A DNA stretch of 64,000 nucleotides from Ignavibacteriota bacterium (GCA_963769605.1 CAVYML010000003.1:158305-222304), one strand, 5' to 3'; positions 25-32,515 are shown, counted from the first letter of the stretch. Program-made: numbers and translations. Notes: generated by a model not told the origin, from the letters alone.

Positions 25-594
25 ATGAAACAATCACATGAAATTATCATTGCGGGATTCGGCGGACAGGGTGTCCTTTCAATGGGACAGATCATTGCAT
101 ATGCGGCAATGAAAGAAAACAAAGAAGTAAGCTGGATGCCTTCCTACGGACCGGAAATGCGCGGGGGGACGGCAAATTGCGTCGTGATCGTTTCGGAAAA
201 ACGCATCAGTTCTCCTATCGTGACAATGTTCGATACGGCGATAATTTTAAATCAGCCATCGCTTGACAAATTTGAAAATACGGTGTACACCGGCGGTTTA
301 CTCATCTATGAAAAATCAACAATTATTAACCCGCCTAAAAGAAACGATATCGAAATCATCGCCCTGCCCGGACTTGAGATTGCACAGCAATTGACGAGCA
401 AACAAGTAGCCAATATGGTTTTGCTTGGAGCCTTTTTGGAACGCAGACCGATTGTAAAGCCGGAAAATGTCGTAAATGCTTTGAAGAGTGTTTTGCCTGC
501 ACACCGTCAGTACTTGATTCCGATCAATGAACAGGCCTTAAAAAGGGGAAAAGAACTTGTGATGGAGAAAGCCGCCGAATCGGTCGTGAAATAA
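25..594 (+). CDS. 2-oxoacid:ferredoxin oxidoreductase, gamma subunit (KorC/PorG family)
   Basis: 189 aa with a GFGGQGV motif and the length typical of the pyruvate/2-oxoglutarate ferredoxin oxidoreductase gamma subunit. A TGA at positions 1-3 may be the stop of an upstream alpha or beta subunit gene. Confidence 0.75.
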   Translation: MKQSHEIIIAGFGGQGVLSMGQIIAYAAMKENKEVSWMPSYGPEMRGGTANCVVIVSEKRISSPIVTMFDTAIILNQPSLDKFENTVYTGGLLIYEKSTIINPPKRNDIEIIALPGLEIAQQLTSKQVANMVLLGAFLERRPIVKPENVVNALKSVLPAHRQYLIPINEQALKRGKELVMEKAAESVVK

Positions 595-625
595 ATTATT
601 CGCAGATATTTGGGATAAAGAAATC

Positions 626-892
626 ATGGAAAATAAAAATTTCGAATGCATTCATGCCTGCCGTACCACATGCAGTATGCTGGATGAAGCGATGCGGGAT
701 GAGACTGCGATGATTAGATTCTATGAACGGATGATGAATGAATGCACGTATCCAGATGTTCATGCATTTATTCGTGAAATCCTAGAAGAACGCAGCAGTG
801 CTATACTTCGCATTGTACAAAAGCTCAATGAATTAAAAGTTCGCGGACAAACAGTAGAGGATATTCGTTCGAGTTTTGACCCCGCTCCTTAA
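626..892 (+). CDS. hypothetical small cytoplasmic protein
   Basis: 88 aa ORF with good coding appearance and no recognisable domain. It is Cys-rich (CIHACRTTC). Confidence 0.35.
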   Translation: MENKNFECIHACRTTCSMLDEAMRDETAMIRFYERMMNECTYPDVHAFIREILEERSSAILRIVQKLNELKVRGQTVEDIRSSFDPAP

Positions 893-1323
893 GTGTTCAA
901 GTCGGCCTTTTTTTAAGAATCTTTCTTCAAATTTATTTTTTGATACTACCCGGATAAGATGCACACTCAAACGTGCAATTCTTTTTGCAGGTTTAGCTTC
1001 GTTGGGGGAAAAACACTTTTTTTCTCTCTTGGCAATGTTTCATTTTGCAGAACTATCCCTATCGGGTTTCATAAAACCGTTTGGATTGATATCAAAAAAC
1101 GGTGGTTTTAGGACGAAATTCAGGTTTTTTATAATCCTCATTCATGACGGCAAGGGTTTCCACTCGTTGCGGGATTTTGTTTTAAATTGGAGATCAAGAG
1201 GCTTGCAGATGAAAATCTATTATAGTTTCTCTATATTTGCTTTTTGCGGGATTATTTCACAACATCTCGCCATATAATATCTCCGATGAGTTGCACGAAA
1301 ATTTTAAACGAAGAGGAACGTCT

Positions 1324-2457
1324 ATGAATATCGGTGTTATGAAAGAACGATTTCTGCAAGAGCGGCGTGTCTCACTTACTCCGGGCGGAGTTAAGACGCT
1401 TGCCGGTTTCGGTGCGACTGTATACGTCGAACGAAATGCCGGCGCACAAAGCTACTTTACAGATCAGGAATATCAGGAAGCAGGTGCTGTAATTGTTTAC
1501 AGCGCGGAAGAGCTCATTATGCGTTCGGATGTTGTCTCGAAAATTGCTCCTCCGACATTGGATGAACTTTCCATGCTTCGGGAAGGTCAGACACTTTTTG
1601 CAGCGTACCATCTCGCAATCTCAAAAAAACAGATTATCGAAAAACTTTTAGAAAAAAGAGTGATCGCAATTGCGCATGAACTGATCGAAAATGCACATGG
1701 AGAATTGCCGATTGTACAGACGATGGCGGAAATTGCGGGACAGCTTTCCATTCAAGTTGCTGCACATTTTCTCCAGACACGGCACGGCGGCCGCGGTGTT
1801 CTGCTCGGCAGCATACCCGGTGTTCCTGCTGCTCATGTCGTTATTCTCGGCGCCGGAACAGTGGGAAAAACCGCAGCCCGTGTAGCGCTGGGCCTCGGCG
1901 CACGGGTGTCAGTGATCGATAGAAATATTGTTCGTTTGCGTGAACTGGAAAATCTTTTTCAATGGAGAATTTCCACGGCGCTGGGAGACGCTTATTCGAT
2001 CGAACAGGCAGTGCGTGATGCGGATGTCGTGATCGGCGCCGTTTTACTGAAAGGAGAAAAAACGCCGCACCTGGTAACGGAAGAAATGGTTAAACAGATG
2101 AATCATGGCTCTGTGATCGTCGATGTTTCTATTGATAACGGCGGATGCGTAGAAACCAGCCGTCCGACGACATTACTTGACCCGACATTTATCGTACACC
2201 ATGTCGTGCATTATTGCGTGCCCAATATGGCCGCATCAGTGCCGCGTACCGCAACAGTCGGCTGGTCGAATGTACTGCTGCCGCTTCTGCATGAAGCATC
2301 GGATCTCGGTATGGATGAAATGCTGCGCACAGATGCCGGGCTTGCAAAAGGCGTGTGCACATATAAGGGTTCGTGCACGAACAAAACAGCGGCTAAAATA
2401 TTTGAGATACCGTTCGTGGATCTCAATACGCTTTTGACAAGAACACTGCGGGATTGA
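1324..2457 (+). CDS. ald: alanine dehydrogenase
   Basis: The N-terminus MNIGVMKE..RVSLTPGGV, an NAD-binding VVILGAGTVG motif and a C-terminal CVPNMAASVPRTAT region are typical of the Ald/PntA-N family. The start is placed at the internal Met of the longer ORF. Confidence 0.85.
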   Translation: MNIGVMKERFLQERRVSLTPGGVKTLAGFGATVYVERNAGAQSYFTDQEYQEAGAVIVYSAEELIMRSDVVSKIAPPTLDELSMLREGQTLFAAYHLAISKKQIIEKLLEKRVIAIAHELIENAHGELPIVQTMAEIAGQLSIQVAAHFLQTRHGGRGVLLGSIPGVPAAHVVILGAGTVGKTAARVALGLGARVSVIDRNIVRLRELENLFQWRISTALGDAYSIEQAVRDADVVIGAVLLKGEKTPHLVTEEMVKQMNHGSVIVDVSIDNGGCVETSRPTTLLDPTFIVHHVVHYCVPNMAASVPRTATVGWSNVLLPLLHEASDLGMDEMLRTDAGLAKGVCTYKGSCTNKTAAKIFEIPFVDLNTLLTRTLRD

Positions 2458-2465
2458 GAGGACCT

Positions 2466-3764
2466 ATGAGCTGGATCGATCTCTATAAATCGAAAATTGT
2501 TTCGCTGGAAGATGCTGTTAGTGTTGTGAAATCCGGAGACCGCATCTTTTCAAGCGCCAATGCAGCAACACCGCTCATAACAATGAACGCACTGGCAAAA
2601 CGAGCGAGCGAATTGACGAATGTCGAAATCAACCATCTTCTCCTGATGGGAGAAGATCCGCTGACTAAACCGGGAATGGAAAATCATTTCCATCATAATT
2701 CGCTTTTCGTGGGCCCGGGAGACCGACCGTCGATTGCAGAAGGAGTTTCGGATTACGTTCCTGTTCATCTTTCGGACGTGCCGGGATTGTTCAGGGCCGG
2801 TTACATTTCTTTGGATGTCGCGCTAATCCATGTTTCTCCTCCGGATGCGCACGGCTTTGTGAGCCTGGGAGTTGAATGTGCTGCGACAAAAGCAGCGGCC
2901 GAAACGGCAAAAATTGTAGTCGCTCAGGTCAACGAGCGCATGCCTCGTACTTTGGGAGATGTATTTGTTCCTGTTTCACGGGTTCATAAAATCGTCGAGT
3001 GTTCAGAGCCTCTTTTGGAACTCAAACCGGGGGTTGCAACTGAAGTCGAGGAGAGGATTGCAGATTTTATTGCTCCTTTGATTGAAGACGGCTCAACGCT
3101 GCAATTGGGCATCGGCGGAATTCCCGACGCGGTTCTGAGCCGCATCGACGGTAAGCAGCATCTCGGTATTCATACGGAGATGATTTCCGACGGGGTTATG
3201 AAGGCTGTCGAAAGCGGTATTATTACGAGTTTGAATAAAACACTGCATCCGGGCAAAGTCGTTACGACTTTTGTTATGGGATCACAAAACCTGTACGACT
3301 ACGTTCACAACAATCCGCTCTTTGAGGTGCATCCCTGCGATTATACTAACAATCCGTTCATCATAGCGCAGAATGAAAAGATGGTCGCTATCAATTCTTC
3401 GATCGAAGTCGATATCAGCGGCCAGGTATGTTCCGATTCAATCGGTACAAAAATTTACAGCGGCTTCGGCGGTCAGGTCGATTTTATTCGCGGAGCGGCA
3501 TATTCGAAAGGCGGAAAACCGATTATTGCACTTCCATCAACGACAAAGAACGGTGAATTTTCGAAGATTGTACCGCGTCTGCGAACCGGCGCAGGTGTCG
3601 TTACGACACGCGCAGATGTGCATTATGTCGTTACCGAATATGGAGTCGCATCGCTTCATGGAAAAAATATACATCAAAGGGCCGAGGCTCTTATCGCAAT
3701 AGCACATCCTAAGTTCCGTACGGAACTGGAAAATTACCTTCGAACTATATATAGAGCTGTTTGA
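2466..3764 (+). CDS. acetyl-CoA hydrolase/transferase family protein (4-hydroxybutyrate/succinyl-CoA:acetate CoA-transferase-like)
   Basis: The LQLGIGGIPDAVL motif and overall length match the Cat1/AbfT family. An RBS-like GAGGA precedes the ATG at 2466. Confidence 0.8.
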   Translation: MSWIDLYKSKIVSLEDAVSVVKSGDRIFSSANAATPLITMNALAKRASELTNVEINHLLLMGEDPLTKPGMENHFHHNSLFVGPGDRPSIAEGVSDYVPVHLSDVPGLFRAGYISLDVALIHVSPPDAHGFVSLGVECAATKAAAETAKIVVAQVNERMPRTLGDVFVPVSRVHKIVECSEPLLELKPGVATEVEERIADFIAPLIEDGSTLQLGIGGIPDAVLSRIDGKQHLGIHTEMISDGVMKAVESGIITSLNKTLHPGKVVTTFVMGSQNLYDYVHNNPLFEVHPCDYTNNPFIIAQNEKMVAINSSIEVDISGQVCSDSIGTKIYSGFGGQVDFIRGAAYSKGGKPIIALPSTTKNGEFSKIVPRLRTGAGVVTTRADVHYVVTEYGVASLHGKNIHQRAEALIAIAHPKFRTELENYLRTIYRAV

Positions 3765-4091
3765 AAACGTGGACGATAACTCATCAATCGAAAAAGAAAA
3801 TCACGAATCCGTCTCAAAATAAGACACGAATTTTCTCGATACCAACTTTTCGTGGGCGTCAATAGTTCAAATATTAGATAAATGGCTGAGAGGATAATAA
3901 TCTTGAAAATGGAAAAAATTCTAAAGTTTAAGAGTTATTATTGTGTTATTCAACGCTAACTCATATATTTGATCAATAATTCAACGTTTTATTGATTTTT
4001 ACTTGGCACAGAGCTTGCGCTAACATAATGCCTAATAACAAAATGCGTGTTTATCGAACGGAGTAAGCATTTTTTTTCTACAGAATTCAAA

Positions 4092-6311
4092 ATGAAAAAT
4101 CAAATTCTAACAGTTTTTTTTATAATCGTGTCAGCAGCATCGCATGCAGCAATTGGGCAGACAATAGACGATTGCTTGATGTGCCATGCGGATACATCGC
4201 TGACCATGGATCGTAATGGAAAAAATGTATCCATTTATGCGGATCGGTCCGTTTTACATCGATCTGTGCATGCGAAATTTGTATGCGTTGCCTGTCATAC
4301 CGGCTTCGATCCCCAGAATGTTCCGCATAAAGAAAAGATCACTCCTGTGAATTGTCTGCAATGTCACAGCGATGCTCCGGCAAAACATCCGTTTCATGCC
4401 TCAGAGATGAAAAGTGCGGCGAATCAGTCTTCGCTCCTTGTTCAGTGCAAACAATGCCACGGAACGCATGCTGTTGCGGCAATAAAAAATACGAATGCAA
4501 GTCTTCAAAGCAGGAATATTATCGAAACATGCGGAAAATGTCACGCAGCAGAAAAAGAGCGTTACTCAACTTCCGTTCATGGAAAAGCAGCGGTCGGGGG
4601 AGTCGTTGCTGCTCCCGATTGTGTCTCTTGCCATCAAAATAAAATTACAGGTTTGGCAGGAAGCAGGGATTCGGTCGCAATAAAAATTGCTCAGGAAAAA
4701 ACGTGTTTGTCCTGCCACCTTGATAATCCCGATGTACGCTCGCATATCGGTCTGTCGGCAGTATTTATCGCTGCATACGAAAAAAGCGTCCACGGTTCAG
4801 CTTTATTGAAAGGAAACGCATCTGCCGCCAATTGCGTCGATTGTCACGGCAGCCATTCGATTCAGCGAAGCGATGCTACGGCATCATCGATCAATCGGAA
4901 CAATATTCCCGCAACATGTGCGAAATGTCATGCCGGCATAAAACATGAATACGACGAAAGTATTCATGCAAAAGCCGTCGCAGGCGGGAATATGCAGGCG
5001 CCGGTTTGTACGAATTGTCACGGTGAACATAATATTCTTGCACCAGCAAATCCGGAGTCGCGTGTGGCCGCACAAAATGTTTCCCAGCAAGTCTGCTCCC
5101 CTTGTCATAGTTCGGTTCTTCTTTCAGAAAAATACGGTATTGCCAGCGATAGGTTTAAAACCTATTCTTCAAGCTTTCACGGCTTGGCTGTTCGCGCCGG
5201 TAATGTTGCCGTAGCGAATTGTGCGAGTTGTCATGGCGCCCATAACATAAAACCATCATCCGACTCCACATCATCGGTCAACAAGGCGAATCTTGTTAAG
5301 ACGTGCGGCAAATGTCATCCCGGAGCCAATGAGCGTTTTACGATCGGATCTATCCATGTTACGGCAGCACAAAAAGAAGAACCGCTGATCTATTGGTTTT
5401 CATTATTTTATGTGCTCATGATCGCATCTGTTATCGGCGGGATGTTTCTCCATAATCTTTTGGATTTTTACCGAAAATCGAAACGACAATTACTTATCCG
5501 CCGAGGATTTGAAACAGAAGAGCATTTCGGACACGCATTATATGTGCGAATGACACTCAATGAAAGGATTCAGCATGCAGCATTGATGGTCAGTTTCTTT
5601 ACGCTTGTTTTTACGGGATTTATGCTCCGATATCCCGACGCGTTCTGGGTTGTCTCCATTCGCAGCTTAAGCGAAAGTGTTTTCATGCTGCGCGGTTTGA
5701 TTCACCGTTGTGCAGCGGTTGTTATGGTCTCGGCTTCGCTGTATCATTGTTATTATGTTATCTTCACTAAACGCGGCAAGCAGCTCATCAGGGACCTTTT
5801 TCCCGTCTTGCAAGATTTTACCGATGCAGGAGATGTTTTGAAATATAACCTAGGCTTTTCAAAAACGAAGCCGAAACTCGGGCGGTTCAGCTATATAGAG
5901 AAAAGCGAATATTGGGCGCTCGTATGGGGTGTTGTAGTGATGGGGATAACAGGAATAATTTTATGGTTCGATAATACATTTATGGGATTGTTGACAAAAC
6001 TCGGCTGGGATATTGCCCGCATTATTCACTTTTATGAAGCATGGCTCGCTTTTCTTGCCATTCTTATATGGCACGTTTATTATGTCATTTTCAATCCCGA
6101 TGTTTATCCGATGAATCTTGCCTGGTTGAAAGGCACAATTACAGAAACGGAAATGGGAGAAGAACATTTGCGGGAATTGGAACAGTTGAAACGGCAGAAA
6201 CTTCTCGATGAAGCAACAGTTGTTCCTGTTGATGATGTCGAAAAGGAAAATCAAAAAGATATAAAACAGGTGCCCAAGAAATCACAGAAACACCCGAAGC
6301 TGAGATCATGA
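4092..6311 (+). CDS. fused multiheme cytochrome c (13 CXXCH) and integral-membrane cytochrome b (HydC/FdnI-like), CbcL-like quinol oxidoreductase
   Basis: A signal peptide (MKNQILTVFFIIVSAASHA) is followed by 13 CXXCH motifs in about 430 aa. The C-terminal ~300 aa form a polytopic membrane domain with conserved His residues on the helices, as in the Ni/Fe-hydrogenase/formate dehydrogenase b-type cytochrome subunit. Geobacter CbcL has the same architecture. Confidence 0.8.
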   Translation: MKNQILTVFFIIVSAASHAAIGQTIDDCLMCHADTSLTMDRNGKNVSIYADRSVLHRSVHAKFVCVACHTGFDPQNVPHKEKITPVNCLQCHSDAPAKHPFHASEMKSAANQSSLLVQCKQCHGTHAVAAIKNTNASLQSRNIIETCGKCHAAEKERYSTSVHGKAAVGGVVAAPDCVSCHQNKITGLAGSRDSVAIKIAQEKTCLSCHLDNPDVRSHIGLSAVFIAAYEKSVHGSALLKGNASAANCVDCHGSHSIQRSDATASSINRNNIPATCAKCHAGIKHEYDESIHAKAVAGGNMQAPVCTNCHGEHNILAPANPESRVAAQNVSQQVCSPCHSSVLLSEKYGIASDRFKTYSSSFHGLAVRAGNVAVANCASCHGAHNIKPSSDSTSSVNKANLVKTCGKCHPGANERFTIGSIHVTAAQKEEPLIYWFSLFYVLMIASVIGGMFLHNLLDFYRKSKRQLLIRRGFETEEHFGHALYVRMTLNERIQHAALMVSFFTLVFTGFMLRYPDAFWVVSIRSLSESVFMLRGLIHRCAAVVMVSASLYHCYYVIFTKRGKQLIRDLFPVLQDFTDAGDVLKYNLGFSKTKPKLGRFSYIEKSEYWALVWGVVVMGITGIILWFDNTFMGLLTKLGWDIARIIHFYEAWLAFLAILIWHVYYVIFNPDVYPMNLAWLKGTITETEMGEEHLRELEQLKRQKLLDEATVVPVDDVEKENQKDIKQVPKKSQKHPKLRS

Positions 6312-7801
6312 AAAGATTATTTCCTAAAACATTTTATAATATAACAAGCCTTTACGGCTTTGTTCTTGTGTCGATCAGTTTCGGATTATTCATATTCCTA
6401 TCGATTCTCGATTTCTTTGCCACGGATCAAAAACCGTATATGGGCATCATTACGTTCATAATTCTGCCGGCATTTTTGATAATCGGTTTGGCAATCGGTT
6501 TTTGGGGCGTATGGCGTGAGCATAAACGCAGGAAGCTCGGTTTGCCAATCCATGAACAATTGCCGCGGATCGATCTGAACGACCCAAAGCAGCAGCGGGT
6601 TGTTTTATACACAGGCATCGGAACACTTGTGTTTTTATTCCTTACTGTCTTCGGAAGCTATAAGGCGTATGAATATACGGACTCGGATGCGTTCTGCGGA
6701 ACCACGTGTCACAAGGTAATGAACCCGGAATATACGGCATATCAAAATTCGCCGCATGCCCGTGTCGACTGTGTTAAATGCCACATTGGCCCTGGCGCCG
6801 GATGGTATGTGCGTTCGAAACTCTCAGGCGCATATCAGGTGTATGCGACGTTATTCAACAAATATCCTAAACCCATACCTACGCCGATCGAAAATCTTCG
6901 TCCGGCTCAGGAAACATGCGAACAATGCCATTGGCCTAAACAGTTTTTCAGTGAAAAGCTAAAAAAAAATACATATTTTCTGTCGGATGAAAAGAATACC
7001 CGTTGGACGCTGGATCTTCTTCTTAAAATAGGAGGAGGAAATATTGAAGCAGGCCCGACATCTGGAATTCACTGGCATATGAATATTGCGAATGAATTGA
7101 CGTATATTGCAGACGATACGCAGCGCCAGGTTATTCCATGGATAAAATCAAAACGGGCAGACGGAAGTGTGGTGGTTTATCGCACCGCGGAGAATGCGAT
7201 TTCTGATTCGGCGGTTCAAACAATAAATAAGCGGCGCATGGATTGCATAGATTGCCATAACCGTCCTACTCACATTTACAATCCGCCGGCACAATCGGTG
7301 AACCATATTATGGCACTTGGCTGGATTGATCCGGCGCTTCCGGGCGTGAAAAGCATAGCAATAAAAGCATTGGAAACATCGTATGACACAAAGGAAGCGG
7401 GATGGAATGGTATTAAAAGAACTATCGAAGAATATTATCAAACAAATTATCCTCAGATTGCTGAAAGCCGGAAGGATACAATTGCGCGCGCCATTAAGGA
7501 AATTCAGCGTATCTTCAGCCATAATTATTTTCCCGAGATGCAGGTGAGCTGGAAAAAATTTCCCGACAATCTGGGCCACCTGTATTCACCAGGTTGTTTC
7601 CGGTGTCACGACGGCAAGCATGTGACGGATGACGGAAAAGTATTGTCCCGGGATTGCAATGTCTGCCACACCATTCTTGCACAGCAGTTTGAAAAAGAAG
7701 GATTACGATTGTCGCTCGACGGCATTGAATATCATCACCCTGTGGATATCGGCACTGCATGGAAAGAAATGAATTGCAGCGATTGCCACAACGCTCAATA
7801 G
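6308..7801 (+). CDS. heptaheme membrane-anchored cytochrome c, NapC/NirT family (ImcH-like)
   Basis: Three N-terminal transmembrane helices are followed by seven heme sites. The first site is CGTTCH (CX3CH); the others are CVKCH, CEQCH, CIDCH, CFRCH, CNVCH and CSDCH. Size and topology match ImcH-type inner-membrane quinol dehydrogenases. The gene is translationally coupled to the previous one through an ATGA overlap. Confidence 0.7.
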   Translation: MKRLFPKTFYNITSLYGFVLVSISFGLFIFLSILDFFATDQKPYMGIITFIILPAFLIIGLAIGFWGVWREHKRRKLGLPIHEQLPRIDLNDPKQQRVVLYTGIGTLVFLFLTVFGSYKAYEYTDSDAFCGTTCHKVMNPEYTAYQNSPHARVDCVKCHIGPGAGWYVRSKLSGAYQVYATLFNKYPKPIPTPIENLRPAQETCEQCHWPKQFFSEKLKKNTYFLSDEKNTRWTLDLLLKIGGGNIEAGPTSGIHWHMNIANELTYIADDTQRQVIPWIKSKRADGSVVVYRTAENAISDSAVQTINKRRMDCIDCHNRPTHIYNPPAQSVNHIMALGWIDPALPGVKSIAIKALETSYDTKEAGWNGIKRTIEEYYQTNYPQIAESRKDTIARAIKEIQRIFSHNYFPEMQVSWKKFPDNLGHLYSPGCFRCHDGKHVTDDGKVLSRDCNVCHTILAQQFEKEGLRLSLDGIEYHHPVDIGTAWKEMNCSDCHNAQ

Positions 7802-7822
7802 AATAAAGAAAAAAAGGGATCT

Positions 7823-8278
7823 ATGAATCAAACACCAGAAACTCCTGTCGATCAAAGTAAAAGAGACTTTTTACAGGTGGTCTTAGGCGGAGCGAGTGCG
7901 GCTTTTCTTGCTGCGATTTTATATCCGATCTTCGAATACCTCAAACCGCCGAAGCAGGCAGAAGTGGAAGTCTCGAGCGTGAAAGCCGGAAAGTTGAACG
8001 AGATTGAAAAAGACAGCGGGAAAATCATCAAGTTTGGCAGCAAGCCCGTTATTCTTATCCGTACCGCCAACGATGAGCTGCGGGCATTCTCGGCAACGTG
8101 CACGCATCTGGATTGCACCGTTCAGTACCGTAAAGATTACGGTACAATTTGGTGCGCATGCCATAATGGAAAGTATGATTTAAACGGCCGCAATATTTCC
8201 GGTCCGCCGCCGCGGCCGCTGGATGAATACAGGGTCGTTCTTCAAGGAGACGAAATTCTTATTTCGAAAAAAATATGA
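7823..8278 (+). CDS. Rieske [2Fe-2S] iron-sulfur protein of a cytochrome b/Rieske complex
   Basis: A KRDFL Tat-like motif followed by a transmembrane anchor is present. Rieske boxes CTHLDC and CACHNGKYD are both present. Confidence 0.85.
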
Positions 8279-9348
8279 AGACAATTCTTAAAAGAATGTA
8301 CGACTGGGTTGATGAACGTGTTGAACTCAATGGCCTGGTGGAATATATGGGAAAAAAATATGTTCCTGTGCACCGGCATTCAGTGTGGTACTATTTCGGC
8401 GGTGTCTCGCTCTTTCTGTTCATCATTCAGGTCGTAACAGGAATACTCCTGCTGCTCTATTATAAAAGCGGGGAGGAACTTGCAATCGAAAGCATTCATT
8501 TTATTATGTCGAAAGTGCAATTCGGCTGGCTGATCCGTTCGATCCACAGCTGGACTGCAAATCTGTTTATCCTCTCGGCAATGATTCATATGTTTAGCGT
8601 CTACTTTGAAAAAGCGTACCGCAAGCCGAGGGAAATAACATGGATAACGGGAATGCTTATGTTCTTTGTCCTGCTGGGATTCGGGTTCAGCGGATATTTA
8701 CTGCCATGGAATGAACTCGCATTCTTTGCAACAAAAGTCGGAACAGATATCGCAGGTGTGGTGCCTGTTATCGGCAAACCTTTAATGATCTTCCTGCGCG
8801 GCGGTGATGATGTTACAGGAGCAACTCTTTCCCGGTTTTTTGGGTTCCATGCGGCCGTCCTGCCGGGTATTTTTACGGTTTTTCTGGGAATTCACCTTCT
8901 TCTCGTTCAACGGCAGGGGATGAGCGAGCCGTTTCATTGGAAAAACGACACCGAGCAAAAAACGATGCCGTTTTTTCCGAACTTCCTGCTTCGTGATCTT
9001 TCATTATGGCTGCTGGTCTTGAATCTTCTTGCGATCCTGGCGGTTTTCTTCCCATGGGAATTAGGCAAAAAAGCCGATGCTTTTGCTCCTGCACCTGCAG
9101 GCATTAAGCCGGAATGGTATTTTCTTTATATGTTCCAGACGCTGAAATTTATACCCGGGAAATTATGGGTCCTTGATGGAGAGGTTCTAGGCATCGGATT
9201 ATTTGGCGCCGCAGGAGCGCTTTGGACGCTCGTACCGTTTTGGGACCGGAAAAGTCCCCGCGGTGAACAAAACCGATTCGTCAATTATCTCGGTCTCTTT
9301 GCAGTCATCTATATTATCATTCTCACAATTATAGGGTGGCTGGCATGA
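8275..9348 (+). CDS. cytochrome b (b6/subunit IV fused type)
   Basis: The N-terminal [24 protein letters not shown] motif is typical of cytochrome b. Heme-ligating His residues sit on helices and a PEW-like region is present. The 357 aa length suggests a fused b6 + subunit IV. Confidence 0.85.
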
Positions 9349-10808
9349 AAAAATTCTTTCTCTCATTTATTTCCGCCGCTCTACTTGTTCTCCCATTAAA
9401 AGCACAAAGACAAGATCAATGTTTTGAATGCCATAAAAATGCCGAAGATAATCCATCGAAACTTTTTAACCTTGACATTCATCACCAAAAAGGAATTACA
9501 TGCGCAGGATGCCATGGCGGTAATTCTAAAACGGACGACATGGAACTGGCGATGAGCAAGAAAGCCGGATTCATCGGCAGGCCAAAGGGCGACGACATCT
9601 CCCGCGTTTGCGCTGCATGCCACGGCGACCAAGAGAAGATGAAGTCTTTCGGTTCTTCCCTGCCGACGAATCAGTGGGAAAACCTGCAGTCGAGCGTTCA
9701 TGCCAAACCGGCCCTCAAAGGGAAAGAACATATCGTACAGTGCACGACGTGTCACAATGCACACGGAATTGTTTCTGTAAAAAATGCATGGTCTCCGGTC
9801 TATCCGCTCAACGTTGTAAAGACATGCACTCGATGCCATGCCGATGTTGCCTTTATGCGCTCCTATAATCCGTCACTGCCGGTGGATCAATTGGAAAAAT
9901 ACCGCACGAGCGTTCACGGTGTGCGCAACGGAAAAGGCGATCCGAAAACAGCGCAATGCGCAAGCTGCCATGGCAGTCACGATATACGAGCTGTGAAGGA
10001 CGTGAAATCGAATGTCTATTTTTCAAATTTGCCGGCAACATGCGCCAAGTGTCATTCCAACTCAGTGTACATGAAAGAATATAAAATTCCAGCCGATCAA
10101 TACGAAAAATATGCAAAGAGTGTCCACGGAATTGCAGTGCTGCAAAAACATGACCCCGGTGCGCCTGCCTGTAACAATTGCCACGGAAATCATGGTGCAA
10201 TGCCTCCGGGTATCGAATCGATCTCGCAAGTCTGCGGGACGTGCCATGCACTCAATGCAGAACTGTTTGCATCCAGCCCGCACAAGAAAGCGTTTGAAGA
10301 ACGAAAACTGCCTGAGTGTGAAACCTGCCACAGCAACCATGAAATTGTTGCCGCAACCGATAAACTCCTCGGCACAGATCCGGGCGCAGTGTGCAGCAGA
10401 TGTCACTCTTCGACGCAGAATTCCAACGGATATAATGCGGCAAAAGCTATGCGCGGATTGATCGACACTTTGGAAAGCCGAGAGGGACATGCCAAAACCT
10501 TGGTGAATGATGCAGAACAGAAAGGGATGGAGATAAGCGAAGCAAAATTTAAACTTAGGGATGTCCGGCAAGCTCGGCTGCAATCCAGAACTATGGTTCA
10601 TGCTTTCAATGAAGTGAAGTTCAAAGAAGTGGTCGACATCGGATTGAAAACGGCCGATATGGTCGTATCTGAATCTCAATCTTCAATCGATGAATATTAT
10701 TTTAGAAGAATCGGATTAGCTATTGCAACAATTATCATTACAATTTTAGCCGTATCGCTGTATGCTTTCGTGCGCCGACTTGAGCGGAGGGAAAACCCAA
10801 TAAAATAA
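9345..10808 (+). CDS. undecaheme c-type cytochrome with C-terminal membrane anchor (candidate c subunit of the Rieske/cytochrome b complex)
   Basis: A signal peptide is followed by 11 CXXCH motifs and a C-terminal hydrophobic helix ([21 protein letters not shown]). The ATG overlaps the cytochrome b stop codon (ATGA). Confidence 0.8.
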
Positions 10809-11106
10809 AATTAGAAGTGTTGAATTTATATGCGATGCTAATATTTGGAATTTTTTCCCAAAATTGTGAAAAAATCAAATAAAGGGAAGATTTTAAATGG
10901 ATTGGAATTCAAATATCTTAAATTATCGGCGATTTTATATTAAAACAGAATATCGTGCCTGTTGTAAAAATTGATGTATAATTATTCTACATGTAAAAAA
11001 TTGGCAGGATTTTTGATGCATTTTCTAAATTAAGCTTCACTTATAAAAATACAGAGTATCACATTAAAGGCAAGGAATCTCTCATAAATATTATTAGGAG
11101 GGCCAT

Positions 11107-11622
11107 ATGCGACTTTTCAAATTTCTCGTTGTTGTTTTTGTAATATTCTCAGGGGCAATAAGCGCACAGCATAAATACGTCGGCGTAAAAATATGCAAGA
11201 TGTGCCATCAAACTGAAAAAATGGGAAAACAATTCGATGTTTGGCAAAAAAGTCCCCACGCGCAAGCATTCGATACTTTAAAATCGGCAGCGGCAGAAAA
11301 AATTGCTAAGGAAAAAGGATTAACAAAAGCTGCTTCTGAATCGCCGGAATGTCTCGAATGTCATGCGATTACAGCGGATCCAAAATTGATTGCGGACGGT
11401 GTGCAATGCGAATCGTGCCACGGTGCGGGATCGGATTACAAGAATATGGCAGTAATGAAAGATCATGCTAAAGCCGTCGCGGCAGGTTTGTCGGATTTCA
11501 AAGACAAAGCTGCTATGGAAAAAACATGCAAACAATGCCACAATGAAAAAAGCCCGACAAAAAAAGAATTTAATTTCGATGAGATGTGGGCAAAGATTAA
11601 GCATCCGATTCCCAAAGGTTAA
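11107..11622 (+). CDS. periplasmic tetraheme c-type cytochrome
   Basis: 171 aa with a signal peptide and four CXXCH motifs. A strong AGGAGG RBS lies before the ATG. Confidence 0.8.
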   Translation: MRLFKFLVVVFVIFSGAISAQHKYVGVKICKMCHQTEKMGKQFDVWQKSPHAQAFDTLKSAAAEKIAKEKGLTKAASESPECLECHAITADPKLIADGVQCESCHGAGSDYKNMAVMKDHAKAVAAGLSDFKDKAAMEKTCKQCHNEKSPTKKEFNFDEMWAKIKHPIPKG

Positions 11623-11732
11623 GACGGTTTTCGTTGTGTGTGAATGCCGGTATGTCCGTGCCGGCTTTTGGCGTCACGGTAAGTTATGAGTAAATGATTG
11701 GTGTGTGTCATCAATCGAAAGAAGAGAACGTT

Positions 11733-13049
11733 ATGAAAATCACAACGAGGCTCAATGCCAAATTTTTAGCGTTTGCAGCGGCTGCTGCTTGTTGCTTGTG
11801 CGGATCTGAGGCATTCGGTCAGATGTTCCAAATGCGTTTGGTATCATCTGCCTACGCCTGGCAGCAGCAAGATTCGGCCGGTCAATCGTCGCACCATCTT
11901 TTCGGATATCAAACCGCCCAGATTTCGATTTCGGGAGAGCAGCTTTCCTTTCATACCTATCTTCAGGGCTTTAACGATTTTGCAGGGCCGCTGCAGGATG
12001 AAGGCGAAATGCGTGCGTACAATTTTTATTTAAAATATGCCGGACTTTTTGACGCAGCAGATGTTTCGGTCGGACGCGTTCCGGTTTTTGCCGGTGTGGG
12101 TGTCGGGACGTTGGACGGCGGGATTGCATCGCTTCGCTTGTTCGATACGCAATTGAAATTGACGGGGTACGGAGGATTGCTTCCGCAGGAAGATGATAAA
12201 TTTGAGCTGATCGGAGATAAGCGGCACAATACTATGTTCGGCGGCCAGATCAGCGCAGCTCCTTTCGAGTGGGGCGCTTTCTCCGTCAGTTATATGCGCA
12301 AGAACGAATTGCCGGAATCATATTGGGCCGAACGGGCGCAAGATTCGACCTATGCAATTCAAAACGTAGAAATCACTTCGTCCCCGGCAGCGGAAGAATA
12401 TATCAGCGGAGATGCCAATATCGATTATGACTGGTTCTCAGCTTCTCTGCGCTACGATTATGATATTTTACAGGATCAGATGTCGCGCGAGCAGATTTTT
12501 ACGCGTTTCAGAATTTGCGCTCCTTTCTCGCTCACCGCGGAGTACATCCAGCGAGAACCGCTCCTCGAATATAATTCGATCTTCTGGGTCTTTGCATACA
12601 ACACGCTGATTGAATATGATGCGGGAGTCGAATATACGCTCGACAAGAACATTCAAGTCTACGGACGGTACGGATCCGTTTCATACGGGGACGGAGAAAC
12701 TTCGGATCGAGTGACAATCGGCGGCAATACTAAATACGTGTCTGCCAACATTGCCTGGAATACGGGTTATGGCGGGCAATTAGCTGCAGTTTCAGCTAAT
12801 GCCGGATACCCGCTTCTGAACAATATGCTGACACCTACACTCCTTCTGAGTTATGCACATTATCGCTTGGAGAGCACAGATGCACTGACCGATGCACTCA
12901 GCATCGGGGCGGGAGTCGTGTACCGGCCGATGCCGATGCTTTCTATCGATACGCAAGTGCAATGGCTGACGAATTCCATTTATAGCAACGATCTGCGCCT
13001 GTTTGTCCGGGCCAGCTATTTCTTCAGTCATCAACTAAACATTTTCTAA
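11733..13049 (+). CDS. outer-membrane beta-barrel protein (candidate porin of a porin-cytochrome conduit)
   Basis: The signal peptide is MKITTRLNAKFLAFAAAAACCLCGSEAFGQ. The body has alternating hydrophobic/polar beta-strand periodicity and is rich in G, Y and aromatic residues. The C-terminus ends in Phe (…QLNIF), an OMP beta-barrel signature. No heme motifs are present. Confidence 0.65.
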   Translation: MKITTRLNAKFLAFAAAAACCLCGSEAFGQMFQMRLVSSAYAWQQQDSAGQSSHHLFGYQTAQISISGEQLSFHTYLQGFNDFAGPLQDEGEMRAYNFYLKYAGLFDAADVSVGRVPVFAGVGVGTLDGGIASLRLFDTQLKLTGYGGLLPQEDDKFELIGDKRHNTMFGGQISAAPFEWGAFSVSYMRKNELPESYWAERAQDSTYAIQNVEITSSPAAEEYISGDANIDYDWFSASLRYDYDILQDQMSREQIFTRFRICAPFSLTAEYIQREPLLEYNSIFWVFAYNTLIEYDAGVEYTLDKNIQVYGRYGSVSYGDGETSDRVTIGGNTKYVSANIAWNTGYGGQLAAVSANAGYPLLNNMLTPTLLLSYAHYRLESTDALTDALSIGAGVVYRPMPMLSIDTQVQWLTNSIYSNDLRLFVRASYFFSHQLNIF

Positions 13050-13058
13050 AAGAGTGCC

Positions 13059-14294
13059 ATGATGACCAATACGTACTATACCACAAGGAAACTGAACAGA
13101 CGTTCTGTCGTGTTCGTTGGAGTATTGCTTCTTGCCGCTATCGGGACAGCAAGCACATCGGCATTCTCCGCCGGGGATGGACCTTCGGTTCAGAATAAAA
13201 TTAAATTTAATCATAAGAAGCATATCGATGAAGTGGGAGCGCAATGCATCGACTGTCACACGAATGCCTTGACAAGCACTGCAGCATCTGATAATCTTTT
13301 TGCTCAAATGTCGGCCTGCCGGCCTTGCCACGAAGATGCGCTCCAAACGAATTGTGCATTCTGCCACACAAGCACCGATTCAACGACGTATGCAATTTCG
13401 AATCCTGTACGCGAATTAACCTTTAATCATCAATTGCATGCGGATGGACAAAAAATCGACTGCCAAAAATGTCATACAAATTTAGACAACGACAAGGTTT
13501 CCATAACCGAAAATGTACCGGCAATGAAAACATGTTCTTCATGCCACGATGGTGTAAAGGTAAAAGACGATTGTGCGGTATGTCATACAAATCTTTCTGC
13601 GCTGCGTCCTGCGGGGCATAACCGTACGGATTTTATACGCGAGCATAAATTTGCGGCGCGTGTCAATACTGCGACCTGCGGCGCCTGCCATTCGCAGGAA
13701 ACATGCACAGACTGCCACAATGGATCCGATCTCGTTCAAGTTACGGTCCCGGGAAAAGATATGATTTCTGCTCATTCTCCGCGTATTTCTTCAAACGACC
13801 GCGGCCAAACTATGGTGATCGAGAAAGTGCATGATTTGAATTACCGGTTTACGCATGGCGTCGATGCTCATGCAAAAACTATAGAATGTAAGACATGTCA
13901 CAGTACCGAACAGTTCTGTACGCCGTGCCATCAGGCGGGAGGAAATGTTAATCAGGAAGTCTTTAAACCCGCATCACATTCCATTGCCGGCTTTACGACA
14001 ATCGGTGTCGGATCGGGAGGCGGAGAACATGCGCGGCTTGCGAAGCGCGATATCGAATCGTGTGCGGCTTGCCACAGCGCCGATGGAGCGGATCCGGTCT
14101 GTGTTACATGTCATATGGATCCGGACGGTATAAAAGGAACAAATCCTAAAACCCATGCAATCGGGTTTATGGCAAATCAACACGGACGCTGGCATTCCGA
14201 TCCGGGCGCAAATTGCTACGTGTGTCATACCGACCCGAATGCAAGGCCAATGGGAATTAAAGGGCAGCGGTTTTGCGGGTATTGCCATAATTGA
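13059..14294 (+). CDS. multiheme c-type cytochrome (14 CXXCH in 411 aa)
   Basis: A signal peptide and 14 canonical CXXCH motifs give roughly one heme per 29 aa. Confidence 0.85.
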   Translation: MMTNTYYTTRKLNRRSVVFVGVLLLAAIGTASTSAFSAGDGPSVQNKIKFNHKKHIDEVGAQCIDCHTNALTSTAASDNLFAQMSACRPCHEDALQTNCAFCHTSTDSTTYAISNPVRELTFNHQLHADGQKIDCQKCHTNLDNDKVSITENVPAMKTCSSCHDGVKVKDDCAVCHTNLSALRPAGHNRTDFIREHKFAARVNTATCGACHSQETCTDCHNGSDLVQVTVPGKDMISAHSPRISSNDRGQTMVIEKVHDLNYRFTHGVDAHAKTIECKTCHSTEQFCTPCHQAGGNVNQEVFKPASHSIAGFTTIGVGSGGGEHARLAKRDIESCAACHSADGADPVCVTCHMDPDGIKGTNPKTHAIGFMANQHGRWHSDPGANCYVCHTDPNARPMGIKGQRFCGYCHN

Positions 14295-14309: not shown

Positions 14310-15176
14310 ATGAGAACAAAATATTTTTATTCGATTTTTATACCGACGATCTTGTCACTCTCATGCAGCGATTTGAAGAAGGATTTGCCGACCGCAACTC
14401 CGAGCGGTATTACAGTTCATGAACAAGGATGGACGGACACGTCGTCCGCCAATTTCCACGGAAAATATATCGCAGGTAATAATTACGATATGCGCGGCTG
14501 CCAGCAATGTCACGGCCTTCAATATGACGGCGGCATCTCAGGTGTTTCCTGTATGACCTGCCATACAAATCCGGATGGTCCTGAAAACTGCGCAACCTGT
14601 CACGGCGTGCCGCCGCCGCCCGATCGTTATGGTAATACTTCCAATGGAGCAATCGGAGTCGGCGCACATGTCATTCATTTCACGGGCAACGGCAATTACA
14701 CGACGCACAGCATGACGTGCTCAATGTGTCATTATATGCCGACAAGCATCTATGATCCCAACCATATAAATGCGACGGGACGCGCTTATGTGGTTTTCAA
14801 TGATCCGTTGGCAACGGTGAAAAGCAACGGAGTCACACCGGCGCCGGCCTATAATCTGAATGCCGTCACATGTGCAAATACATTTTGCCATGGAGCATGG
14901 CAGCTGTCTAAAGCGGTAGCGCCGGACACGACTGTGTATACGGCTGCCGTAATGAGCGGCACGTATGATGCACCGGTATGGACAGGAGGCTCAACGCAAA
15001 CAACTTGCGGCACAAATTGCCACACTAATCCGCCGGCGGGACATAAGGCTTCAGCCTTAACAAACTGTTATACCTGTCATGGCGATGTCATAGATGCAAC
15101 GGGAAAAATAAAGAATAAGACGAAACATATGAACGGAATGATCGATCTTGTGAGCGGAGCAGCGCCATTTCGATAG
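14310..15176 (+). CDS. lipoprotein multiheme c-type cytochrome (7 hemes, paired-CXXCH type with atypical CX3CH and CX4CH sites)
   Basis: A signal peptide ending in LSLSC suggests a lipobox. Five sites are canonical CXXCH (CQQCH, CMTCH, CATCH, CSMCH, CYTCH). Two are atypical, CANTFCH (CX4CH) and CGTNCH (CX3CH). Confidence 0.75.
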   Translation: MRTKYFYSIFIPTILSLSCSDLKKDLPTATPSGITVHEQGWTDTSSANFHGKYIAGNNYDMRGCQQCHGLQYDGGISGVSCMTCHTNPDGPENCATCHGVPPPPDRYGNTSNGAIGVGAHVIHFTGNGNYTTHSMTCSMCHYMPTSIYDPNHINATGRAYVVFNDPLATVKSNGVTPAPAYNLNAVTCANTFCHGAWQLSKAVAPDTTVYTAAVMSGTYDAPVWTGGSTQTTCGTNCHTNPPAGHKASALTNCYTCHGDVIDATGKIKNKTKHMNGMIDLVSGAAPFR

Positions 15177-15234: not shown

Positions 15235-16515
15235 ATGCTGGAAAGAAAAAAAATTACTTTTTTGCTTTGTATTATCACTCTTGCAGTGATTACAGGGTTA
15301 TGGGGAGGCTGCCGCGGTCCAATGGGCCCAACCGGTCCGAGCGGACAAAATGCAAATGCATCGGATCTTGAAGGTTTTGCCCCCGGTATTATATGTGCAA
15401 ACTGTCATAACCAGGATTTTAATCCTACATATGATATTCTTGCAAAAGTCATTGAATACGATGCTTCCATTCATTTTGCGGGAGGCGAAGATATTCAAAA
15501 TACAACTACATGCGCAGGCTGCCATACCAATGAAGGTTTTGTGGATCGCTATAATCATGGTTTTGCCAACGAGTCGTTTAATTTACACGCCCCATCCGGC
15601 CCCTTGGCAAGCCAAGCCTATCCGCAGGCTTCTCCTCCGGGATGCTTTACATGCCACATGCCGCATTCACGAGGCAATTTCACGGTTCGTGATTCCGGTA
15701 AAGTAAACATTTACACGCTTCTTGCCAACCAGTCGACGAAGGTTTGGAACAGCACTTCTGCTTCAAACTTATGCGTCAAGTGTCACCAACCTCGTATGAC
15801 ATCGACCCCCTTTACATCGACCCCGTATTCCTGGCAGCCGGATCCTTCACAAACAAGTGCAACCGACACCGCACGGATTTATACATCAAGATGGAATAAT
15901 CACGTCTCCGGCGAAATGACACAGACGCTGCTTGGTTTTGGCGGTTTCGAGTTTACCGGATATTCAGGTTATACAAATTCACAACATTCGACCTATATGA
16001 ATGGCAATCCTATTGGCTGCGAACAGTGTCACATGGCCACAGTCAACAGCGTCGATCTGGACGGCGGACATACGTTTACAGTAAAAGATACAAGCGCCTA
16101 TTCAATGTCTCCCTCGTATAACGTCAACGGATGCAATGTAAGCGGCTGTCATTCAGGCCTTGCTGCCACCGCAGCGGATGCCCATTGGAGCAAGCGCACG
16201 GTAATTATCACAGAGCTAAATCAGCTTGGAAAACTGATGATGGATACGAACATCACAAGGAAGTGGATGCCTGCCGGTAAAGCTGCTCCATGGGCTTCAT
16301 ACACAGTGACCGGCATCGATACTGTTTGGTCGCAGGTAAGCAAGGTTTACGGCAGCTCGATAGGCGCATCTAATCCTCTCGTTATCGTTCCGGCAGCAAA
16401 AGCGGGTGCACTATGGAATCTTCAACAAATCTATAACGATAAGAGCCACGGCATACACAATTACGAATATTTTAAGGCCTTGTTGGATAATTCAATCGCT
16501 GAGCTTAATAAGTAA
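15235..16515 (+). CDS. multiheme c-type cytochrome, probable lipoprotein (6 hemes including one CX4CH)
   Basis: A signal peptide with a possible lipobox (LWGGC) is followed by a Gly-Pro-rich linker (GPMGPTGPSGQ). Five heme sites are canonical (CANCH, CAGCH, CFTCH, CVKCH, CEQCH). One is atypical, CNVSGCH (CX4CH). Confidence 0.75.
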   Translation: MLERKKITFLLCIITLAVITGLWGGCRGPMGPTGPSGQNANASDLEGFAPGIICANCHNQDFNPTYDILAKVIEYDASIHFAGGEDIQNTTTCAGCHTNEGFVDRYNHGFANESFNLHAPSGPLASQAYPQASPPGCFTCHMPHSRGNFTVRDSGKVNIYTLLANQSTKVWNSTSASNLCVKCHQPRMTSTPFTSTPYSWQPDPSQTSATDTARIYTSRWNNHVSGEMTQTLLGFGGFEFTGYSGYTNSQHSTYMNGNPIGCEQCHMATVNSVDLDGGHTFTVKDTSAYSMSPSYNVNGCNVSGCHSGLAATAADAHWSKRTVIITELNQLGKLMMDTNITRKWMPAGKAAPWASYTVTGIDTVWSQVSKVYGSSIGASNPLVIVPAAKAGALWNLQQIYNDKSHGIHNYEYFKALLDNSIAELNK

Positions 16516-22427: not shown

Positions 22428-22518
22428 AAGATATTCCTTTACATGATAGAGTAATCCGGAATTTTAAAAAGCACAGATCTTTATCATTGGGGAATATAAG
22501 AAGCGCGCAAGAAAAAAG

Positions 22519-22574
22519 ATGTCGTAAAATCACAAAGAGCGTGTCGTATTTTCAACAAACTCGTGTCGTATTTT
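22519..22574 (-). promoter_or_regulatory. three direct repeats of (G)TGTCGTAwwTT at exactly 22 bp spacing in the promoter region of the hybrid kinase gene
   Basis: atgtcgtaaaat (22519-22530), gtgtcgtatttt (22541-22552) and gtgtcgtatttt (22563-22574) lie 92-147 bp upstream of the start codon at 22427 on the - strand. The same motif recurs at 25691-25746. Confidence 0.45.
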
Positions 22575-22741
22575 TGGGGTTGAGGGGGTTATTTTTCACT
22601 TATTGGGAAGAAACGGCCAAATCCGGTCATTTTCGCACGAAACGGAATTTCGCATTGTTTAAAACATTGGGAGTATTTTTTCGATATGATGTTTTTGAAA
22701 AAACAAAAAAAGTTTAATTATGAAAAGGATTATTCCATTTA

Positions 22742-32455: not shown

Positions 32456-32515
32456 ACCGAACTATTTGCGATTGAGTGATTTTCGAATGAAGATTTTTTC
32501 ACTCCACAGCTCTGT

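Follow-up and report, generated by a model that had tools for sequence, protein, structure and literature searches.

Organization of the locus

The window analysed here is a stretch of 64,000 nucleotides from an Ignavibacteriota bacterium (GCA_963769605.1, CAVYML010000003.1:158305-222304), and its plus strand carries two adjoining genes for multihaem inner-membrane cytochromes related to CbcL and ImcH of Geobacter sulfurreducens. Gene A (4092-6311, counted from ATG 4092, with GTG 4047 as an alternative start) encodes a CbcL/MtrH/MtoC-family bc-cytochrome of 739 residues, and gene B (6308-7801) encodes an ImcH-family inner-membrane cytochrome of 497 residues. The two genes share four bases (6308-6311), where the start of gene B (ATG, 6308-6310) and the stop of gene A (TGA, 6309-6311) overlap as ATGA (junction ...AGA TCA TGA), as a preliminary description of this locus had reported. 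The 13 haem motifs of gene A and the seven of gene B occur at densities far beyond chance.

The preliminary description treated these two genes as one transcription unit. The tandem with its overlap stands, but the unit appears to comprise five genes and to include a third quinol-oxidising module. A Rieske [2Fe-2S] subunit (7823-8278, plus strand; 151 residues, one transmembrane (TM) anchor, CTHLDC and CACH motifs, PF00355 at E 2.5e-13) is followed, through an ATGA overlap, by a cytochrome b of the fused b6/subunit IV type (8275-9348, plus strand; 357 residues, PF00033 at E 3.8e-48 together with PF00032). The Pfam matches of both genes exceed their cut-offs. The motifs of this cytochrome b are intact, with H91/H105 as H-x13-H, H192/H207 as H-x14-H, and PEWY at position 279. 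The fifth gene (9345-10808, plus strand), which also begins in an ATGA overlap, encodes an 11-haem c-type cytochrome with a signal peptide and a C-terminal TM anchor. It lies directly 3' of cytochrome b in relatives too, and is probably the c-type subunit or the acceptor of the Rieske/cytochrome b complex. The five genes (4092-10808) are packed at spacings of -4, +21, -4 and -4 bp with three ATGA overlaps, and from this arrangement we infer a single operon with co-transcription and translational coupling. The Rieske and cytochrome b genes resemble those of known complexes (b6-type, 'green clade') in the CTHLDC/CACH, H-x13-H/H-x14-H and PEWY motifs and in the anchored c-type cytochrome encoded 3' of them. 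They differ in that the c subunit here has 11 haems and that quinol oxidases of the ImcH and CbcL families are encoded in the same operon.

The CbcL-family cytochrome

The gene A protein begins with a hydrophobic segment that reads as signal-peptide-like, followed by 13 CXXCH motifs (residues 28-405, by motif scan); this N-terminal part matches several multihaem-c Pfam families. C-terminal to the haem motifs, hydropathy marks five helices (about 430-459, 491-512, 535-558, 606-628 and 641-668), and residues 487-669 match PF01292 (Ni_hydr_CYTB, prokaryotic cytochrome b561; E 4.6e-13; score 49.8 bits, with the cutoff at 30.1). The layout runs from the signal peptide through 13 periplasmic c-haem motifs and a linker helix (TM0) to a four-helix dihaem b domain, and the roughly 70 residues after the last helix form a hydrophilic, cytoplasmic tail without a sixth TM helix. 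Full-length orthologues are 58-92% identical and have 13 haems each; the 13 CXXCH motifs are retained, for instance, in the related loci L002, L003, L004 and L007. Equivalog scores in NCBIfam argue that gene A is neither a formate dehydrogenase gamma subunit (TIGR01583, 53.8 against a cut-off of 115.85) nor a Ni-Fe hydrogenase cytochrome b (TIGR02125, 37.3 against 121.5), and the window annotation has no FdnGH or hydrogenase genes near it.

The membrane domain (5364-6311, plus strand; residues 425-739) was searched against 1.84 billion cluster representatives. Its relatives number 2095 at E <= 1e-3, of which 393 reach E <= 1e-30; the majority are fused to 5-19 c-haem motifs and some are free-standing. 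Since a single-sequence search of the PDB with the b domain gave a weak and mis-registered match to FdnI (E 0.012), a profile search was used instead. A profile built from 26 relatives aligns with the whole chain of E. coli FdnI (1kqf_C) at E 3.7e-17. In this alignment the ligands of the two b haems of FdnI (H18, H57, H155 and H169) correspond to H495, H538, H646 and H661 of gene A, which are present in 138, 140, 140 and 140, respectively, of the 140 aligned representative domains. The AlphaFold model of the domain (pLDDT 85.4) has FdnI as its top Foldseek match (1kqf_C, E 1.1e-6, TM-score 0.83 normalised to FdnI) and the cytochrome b of E. coli hydrogenase-1 (HyaC, 6g94) as the second. Assignment as a HydC/FdnI-type dihaem b domain is supported by sequence, ligands and fold. 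The putative haem b pairs are H495 with H661 on the cytoplasmic side and H538 with H646 on the periplasmic side, and the loop charges predict the FdnI topology. The fusion of a 13-haem c domain to such a b domain, which the preliminary description had proposed, naming conservation of the axial histidines at the C-terminal b haems as a check, is borne out by the CXXCH motifs, PF01292, the FdnI profile, the ligands (138-140 of 140 homologues) and the fold.

Like FdnI (1KQF chain C) and HyaC of Hyd-1, the domain is a four-helix dihaem b bundle with the four axial histidines aligned, and its predicted topology is the same, with cytoplasmic N- and C-termini. It differs from them in the fused 13-haem domain, which takes the place of the FdnGH or hydrogenase partner, and in the extra N-terminal helix TM0 with the conserved residues H454 and H552. 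Three conserved histidines of gene A are without an FdnI counterpart: H552 (128 of 140), H454 in TM0 (97 of 118) and H692 (110 of 140). H454 and H552 both lie near cytoplasmic helix ends, and could mark either a quinone site or the place of a third cofactor.

In the CbcL/MtrH/MtoC family the CX2CH motifs number 3-23 and the TM helices are usually six, and CbcL itself (GSU0274) has 619 residues, nine motifs, and helices at 285, 351, 399, 477, 511 and 589 (Zhong & Shi 2018, PMC6295460). Gene A was compared with GSU0274, and gene B with GSU3259, solely through the published motif and TM coordinates. Gene A shares with CbcL a periplasmic multihaem c domain joined to a HydC/FdnI-type dihaem b domain, without an Fe-S, flavin or Mo subunit. 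Its five helices are colinear with helices 1-5 of GSU0274, and its 13 haems fall within the published range for the family. It differs from CbcL in the number of c haems (13 versus 9), in length (739 versus 619 residues) and in having five TM helices rather than six, with the hydrophilic tail in place of the sixth. None of the 13-haem proteins in the related loci (about 720-770 residues) has the sixth helix, whereas the paralogous 19-haem form does, either fused (about 920 residues) or split into proteins of about 676 and 283 residues. The 13-haem, five-TM subfamily is common in Ignavibacteria, and 11-haem relatives are found in Acidobacteria. Because the sixth helix is missing, we do not term gene A an orthologue of GSU0274, and treat it as a CbcL/MtrH/MtoC member in a distinct 13-haem, five-TM subfamily. 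The CbcL architecture ascribed to it earlier, with 13 rather than 9 haems, therefore holds for family fold and domain order but not for the sixth helix. In public annotation, proteins like that of gene A are labelled 'cytochrome b/b6 domain-containing' or 'cytochrome c3 family'.

Some other readings of gene A were tried and rejected. The two extra genes found in L001 and L002 prompted the idea that gene A is a recombinant of two b domains, with the A/B junction arising by chimera formation or deletion. This was rejected because gene A is a full-length orthologue of the 13-haem gene of these loci (58-92% identity) and is about 30% identical to the extra module. A link between loss of the sixth helix and adjacency to ImcH was also rejected, as both the five-TM (13- and 11-haem) and the six-TM (19-haem or split) forms lie directly upstream of ImcH. 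P0198, a protein with nine haems and a GSU0274-like motif layout, was considered as a stand-in for Geobacter and was found to be Marinimicrobia- or Ignavibacteria-related instead.

The ImcH-family cytochrome

Gene B (plus strand) has three hydrophobic helices near its N-terminus, at residues 11-39, 41-70 and 97-117 by hydropathy and at 12-37, 43-76 and 93-124 in the AlphaFold model (AF2). This model has a mean pLDDT of 51.7, with the TM helices alone usable. The basic loop between TM2 and TM3 predicts a periplasmic haem domain. Directly past the TM domain lies CGTTCH, a CX3CH motif (residues 130-135) whose C130, C134 and H135 are invariant among 29 gene B homologues, and six CXXCH motifs follow at 155, 204, 313, 430, 450 and 490. 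The set of six plus one motifs is kept in every gene B orthologue checked. The three N-terminal helices and seven haem motifs given in the preliminary description, and the TM topology overall, with five helices in gene A and three in gene B, agree with these data.

Residues 99-186 match PF03264 (NapC/NirT) at E 1.8e-15, above the gathering score. NrfH (2j7a_C) aligns with residues 91-213 at E 5e-6, covering TM3 and the first three haem motifs; it was the only solved relative of gene B in the PDB search, in which no ImcH or CbcL structure was found. In this alignment K171 falls on the lysine of the quinol-site segment FKAIAG of NrfH, giving gene B an NrfH-like quinol-site region. ImcH has three residues conserved near haem 1, E127, K173 and Y188 (bioRxiv 10.1101/2023.05.03.539133), and by haem-motif spacing these correspond to D125, K171 and Y186 of gene B. 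Among the 29 homologues, D125 and K171 show no variation and Y186 almost none. Compared with NrfH and CymA (2J7A chain C), gene B is alike in that the TM anchor, the first haems and the lysine-bearing quinol-site segment align. It differs in its TM helices (three, against one), in its haems (seven, against four) and in having CX3CH in place of CXXCHxM at haem 1. The scores of gene B against NCBIfam equivalogs, with weak matches to NrfH, NrfB and TorC, fall below the cut-offs (TIGR03153, 62.4 against 134.2; TIGR02161, 19.8 against 310.6; TorC, 25.4 against 455), and the window annotation has no nrfA, napA or torA near the gene. The NapC/NirT type assigned to gene B earlier thus fits its first part (residues 99-186 by Pfam, 91-213 by NrfH) but not the remainder, which is specific to ImcH-like proteins. 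The public label on such proteins is 'NapC/NirT family cytochrome c'.

Members of the ImcH family have three TM helices, a CX3CH beside the TM domain and 5-9 CX2CH motifs, with 495-519 residues in the Geobacter group (PMC6295460, PMC4251993). Gene B matches ImcH (GSU3259) in the three N-terminal helices, the CX3CH after TM3, the near-equal spacing of the six CXXCH motifs, its length (497 versus 507 residues) and the NapC/NirT/NrfH-like region around TM3 and the first haems. The GSU3259 motifs lie at 132, 156, 205, 311, 428, 448 and 486 (PMC6295460 Table S3), so that the inter-motif spacings are 25/49/106/117/20/38, against 25/49/109/117/20/40 in gene B. Ignavibacteria-type ImcH members of 496-498 residues are already listed in the same table, among them GBD86519.1 from Bacterium BMS3Abin03, whose genome is L035 here. 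Gene B is 61% identical to this protein by tblastn, with no internal gaps and the same motif positions; the CXXCH numbering of Table S3 is one lower than ours, as calibrated on GBD86519.1. For comparison, ImcH identity between the Geobacter group and other bacteria is 31.5-49% (PMC6295460). The colinear motif layout and the identity to an accepted member confirm the ImcH architecture that had been suggested for gene B. What sets it apart from Geobacter ImcH is its setting: that gene is monocistronic, whereas gene B is second in an operon, with an overlapping CbcL-family gene on its 5' side and Rieske/cytochrome b 21 bp to its 3' side. L035 has two ImcH-like paralogues (10001-11494 and 12061-13557) on the same strand, about 570 bp apart and with identical motif positions.

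Conservation and synteny of the tandem

Relatives of ImcH were scanned with one genome per species. At least 598 species have a relative matching two heptapeptides, and the best 80 loci were kept; Geobacter is not among these best 80 of at least 598. The open reading frames of the kept loci were labelled against the window proteins, which gave 72 non-redundant, species-level loci with at least 2.5 kb of sequence 5' of the ImcH-like gene. A CbcL-family b-domain gene ends within 200 bp 5' of the ImcH-like gene, on the same strand, in 35 of these 72 loci; the count rises to 40 when the distance is extended to 1 kb, and 51 loci have a CbcL-family gene anywhere within 10 kb of the ImcH-like gene. 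The records with the direct tandem carry the labels Ignavibacteria, Bacteroidota, Acidobacteriaceae/Terriglobia, Thermoanaerobaculia and Dadabacteria; it is also present in a metagenome-assembled genome (MAG) of Ignavibacterium album (L056). In addition, published tables place the ImcH and CbcL homologues of 'Geobacteraceae bacterium GWB2_52_12' (A2X80_11560 and A2X80_11570) one gene apart, on which the paper does not comment (PMC6295460 Tables S2, S3). CbcL-ImcH proximity is therefore found in Desulfuromonadia-labelled genomes as well. The joining of genes A and B, described earlier as fusion into one transcription unit, is real in this window but no singular event: the pairing recurs across phyla, and the two homologues are close together in this Geobacteraceae MAG.

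The junction itself is more variable than the order. It is overlapping or abutting in four of the 35 tandems; the -4 overlap is shared by the close relatives L004, L005 and L009 (90-94% identity), and an overlap is also present in one Thermoanaerobaculia locus. At 72-74% identity (L007, L010) the gap is 41-45 bp, and in other lineages it is 12-163 bp. L001, L002 and L011 have two extra genes, a second and split CbcL-like module, between A and B, and in L003 and L012 a block of electron transfer flavoprotein (ETF) and acyl-CoA dehydrogenase genes is inserted there. This second module, a 19-haem protein of about 676 residues with a cytochrome b of about 283 residues that has the sixth TM helix, is present in many Ignavibacteria between the 13-haem and ImcH-like genes (L001/L002, 7089-9970; L003/L012, 3183-6054). 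It is absent from the window lineage, and elsewhere it is fused into one protein of about 920 residues.

The third module is also conserved in place. Rieske, cytochrome b and multihaem cytochrome genes lie directly 3' of the ImcH-like gene in 28 loci, and in KSB1 and Verrucomicrobia records Rieske/cytochrome b is linked to the ImcH-like gene in other orders. The divergences of the gene A b domain and of gene B are correlated over 43 taxa (Mantel r 0.66, p 0.001), which fits joint inheritance without proving interaction. The closest gene B proteins (65-94% identity) come from Ignavibacteriales, Ignavibacteria and Bacteroidota MAGs, and contigs with close homologues keep the gene order of the window from pyruvate:ferredoxin oxidoreductase through CcmF. 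A type IX secretion system (T9SS) sorting domain and a hybrid Reg_prop/Y_Y_Y/AraC sensor in the window are consistent with an Ignavibacteria-like group.

Promoter and downstream cytochrome island

The 327-bp intergenic gap before gene A contains an exact match to the sigma-54 -24/-12 consensus (TGGCAC-N5-TTGC; 4004-4018, plus strand), 74 nt 5' of the ATG. By pattern scan it is the sole exact match in the 64 kb. Similar plus-strand matches lie 5' of the CbcL-like gene in L004 (7700), L037 (7621) and L041 (1245), and 5' of ImcH-like, porin or cytochrome genes in L020 (9889), L073 (9867), L016 (15317), L046 (11615) and L051 (14851). Nearly all the matches in related loci are on the cluster strand. 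Scans for sigma-70 promoters and terminators were uninformative, the counts being close to those expected from shuffled sequence; inside the operon no terminator was convincing, and Rfam gave no structured RNA at gathering thresholds between 3000 and 20000. The window showed no gene for a sigma-54 activator, but one lies 3' of the cluster in L003/L012.

Past the operon, the plus strand continues with further cytochrome genes. After a gap of 298 bp comes a tetrahaem periplasmic cytochrome, c554-like (11107-11622; PF13435 at E 2.4e-14, 4 CXXCH), followed by a candidate porin-like outer-membrane protein (11694-13049, likely start 11733) that occupies a conserved position between cytochromes. Next are a 14-haem cytochrome (13059-14294) and two 5-haem lipoprotein cytochromes, one with the lipobox LSLSC (14310-15176) and one that is MtrC/MtrF-domain-like with the lipobox LWGGC (15235-16515). 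A CcmF-like cytochrome c biogenesis protein (16685-18934; 749 residues, PF01578 and PF16327) closes the cluster here and in relatives. In L004, the closest relative, transposases stand right after the 11-haem gene and replace the porin-cytochrome genes.

Proposed function and alternatives

In Geobacter, imcH is monocistronic and required above about -0.1 V, and cbcL is required below it (PMC4251993, PMC5322298); the separate loci and different potentials cited in the preliminary description are in keeping with these reports. Both genes are constitutive, and the switch between them is post-translational and takes place within minutes (PMC5322298). CbcL is shut down when the potential is high, and its protons are believed to end up in the cytoplasm, halving the yield (bioRxiv 10.1101/2022.08.31.506072), and ImcH is electroneutral, with proton release on the P-side (periplasm; bioRxiv 10.1101/2023.05.03.539133). 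Co-regulated high- and low-potential exits from the quinone pool had been suggested for the tandem. The co-encoding stands, but since both Geobacter genes are constitutive and post-translationally switched (PMC5322298), co-transcription is no departure in regulation. Overall the earlier reading is supported, with the membrane domain aligning to FdnI, gene B to NapC/NirT/NrfH, and the axial histidines in place.

The locus is best read, with a probability of roughly 0.6, as the inner-membrane front end of an extracellular-electron-transfer island, with three parallel menaquinol:cytochrome c oxidoreductase modules in one operon. By analogy with FdnI and CbcL, gene A would have its quinol site near the cytoplasmic haem b and release protons inside the cell, and its electrons would cross the membrane via the two b haems into the 13 periplasmic c haems. 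It would be the low-yield route, usable with low-potential acceptors. Gene B would have an NrfH-like quinol site on the periplasmic face and be electroneutral, with protons released outside. Rieske/cytochrome b and the anchored 11-haem cytochrome may run a Q-cycle, with the highest yield and the need for a high-potential acceptor, so that energy yield and potential demand would rise from A to B to Rieske/cytochrome b. All three modules would feed the periplasmic tetrahaem cytochrome and then the porin-cytochrome conduit encoded downstream. Because the modules would be made together, it would be acceptor potential, acting on the proteins as in Geobacter, and not transcription that decides the route. 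On which side the quinone sites lie, how the potential tiers are ordered and that the acceptors are extracellular are all predictions from homology.

Several points weigh against this reading. The A-to-B order is tight across phyla, as is that of B with Rieske/cytochrome b, which exceeds the usual expectation for merely parallel, independent enzymes and could reflect physical or obligatory coupling. The differences of gene A from CbcL in haems (13 versus 9) and helices (five versus six), together with the extra H454 and H552, mean that its potential window may differ. The porin is a candidate, called from its position and from a faint PF13609 (Porin_4) match in the L001/L002 orthologue, and the window copy has no Pfam match. 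The sigma-54-type promoter that probably serves the operon is a consensus match, and the strict pattern was not found in the 90%-identical relatives L005 and L009. The functional assignment for the host organism is itself drawn from sequence and analogy.

The coupling just mentioned leads to a doubtful alternative, in which A and B, possibly with Rieske/cytochrome b, are one physically or obligatorily coupled unit and not alternatives to each other. It might take the form of a redox loop, with the FdnI-type domain of A passing electrons from periplasmic cytochromes to menaquinone on the cytoplasmic face and B oxidising the menaquinol again on the periplasmic face, or of a supercomplex on a shared local quinone pool. 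FdnI is natively a quinone reductase, with a sidedness opposite to that of NrfH-type sites, which speaks for this alternative. The same-strand, short-distance order from A to B across several phyla (35 of 72 loci), the start/stop overlap in the window lineage and one Thermoanaerobaculia locus, the Rieske-cytochrome b-multihaem cytochrome block directly 3' of B in 28 loci (and in another order in KSB1 and Verrucomicrobia), and the correlated divergence of A and B are all in its favour, but shared vertical descent also predicts correlated divergence. Some Ignavibacteria carry intervening genes (the ETF/acyl-CoA dehydrogenase block of L003/L012, the paralogous module of L002), and 21 of the 72 loci are without a CbcL-family gene within 10 kb of ImcH. 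Moreover, the G. sulfurreducens homologues lie apart and are genetically separable, each being enough in its own potential range (PMC4251993, PMC5322298).

A related and equally tentative proposal concerns the history of the arrangement. It is unlikely, though conceivable, that the tandem of CbcL-type and ImcH-type genes, often with Rieske/cytochrome b and a multihaem cytochrome, is an ancestral, functionally integrated quinol hub, and that the separation in Geobacter is derived. On this view an FdnI-type protein, whose quinone site faces inside, and an NrfH-type protein, whose quinol site faces outside, would work in physical association, either forming a redox loop or serving as a potential-sensing gearbox for the local quinone pool that they share, and the pair H454 and H552 might bind a third cofactor for the coupling.

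We consider it improbable that gene A is an inward-acting, MtoC-like quinone reductase and the island bidirectional, with uptake through A and export through B. Its FdnI homologue is natively a quinone reductase, which would suit this direction. CbcL/MtrH/MtoC proteins are found in organisms that reduce Fe(III) as well as in those that oxidise Fe(II), and no feature of their sequence tells the direction, but the ImcH family has so far been found in reducers only (PMC6295460). The cluster also has no Cyc2- or MtoAB-type oxidation genes, and the genes directly upstream (pyruvate:ferredoxin oxidoreductase, alanine dehydrogenase, acetyl-CoA hydrolase/transferase family) are of heterotroph type.

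Equally improbable is an operon for soluble periplasmic acceptors or general reduction of the cytochrome pool (nitrite, arsenate, selenate, or oxygen via c-type oxidases) rather than for extracellular transfer: NapC/NirT- and Rieske/cytochrome b-type modules classically supply periplasmic reductases and oxidases, and NrfH, NrfB and TorC are the weak NCBIfam matches, but the NrfH, NapC, TorC and FdnI equivalog scores are far under the curated cut-offs, and in or beside the cluster there is no catalytic reductase gene but instead a porin-like protein, a 14-haem cytochrome and two lipoprotein multihaem cytochromes.

Relation to known systems

Both protein families are known and Ignavibacteria homologues of ImcH have been published, so that the locus is a new arrangement of known parts and no new kind of system. 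In the literature searched, whose coverage is incomplete so that an earlier description is possible, we found no description of the conserved CbcL-type/ImcH-type tandem, of its extension by Rieske/cytochrome b in one operon, or of the 13-haem, five-TM subfamily. How bacteria match their exit from the quinone pool to acceptor potential has been studied almost wholly in Geobacter, in which the genes for ImcH, CbcL and CbcBA lie apart. The ImcH- and CbcL-type genes adjoin in this window, and the same holds for dozens of species spread over at least four groups of phylum level; in Ignavibacteria they form an operon with Rieske/cytochrome b. If the proposed functions hold, this would be a compact and transferable three-gear module, testable in heterologous hosts. 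It also yields specific candidates for the proteins that partner ImcH, which PMC4251993 had pointed out as a gap, and the synteny of CbcL-type, ImcH-type and Rieske/cytochrome b genes may serve as a marker for predicting extracellular respiration in metagenomes. The arrangement suggests that redox gating at the protein level, rather than transcription, may be a general means of choosing the route.

Neighbouring genes

Directly 5' of the operon (25-3764, plus strand) are genes for the gamma subunit of pyruvate:ferredoxin oxidoreductase, alanine dehydrogenase and a member of the acetyl-CoA hydrolase/transferase family, an order that is kept in Ignavibacteria relatives. These metabolic genes may tie the oxidation of organic acids to electron export. 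Just past the island, on the minus strand (20319-24180), lie a PAS hybrid histidine kinase/response regulator, a LuxR-type response regulator and a HisKA_3 kinase, which are possible regulators. About 10 kb from the cytochrome island, a minus-strand haem biosynthesis operon (28335-36426) encodes a protoporphyrinogen-oxidase-like flavoprotein, a thioesterase, ferrochelatase, HemE, HemD, HemC, HemA and a CcsA-like cytochrome c assembly protein. The window also carries mobile and defence genes, namely a DDE transposase (25967-27457, plus strand), an IS1-like transposase fragment (40852-41703, minus strand) and a Type ISP restriction-modification enzyme (46530-49706, plus strand).

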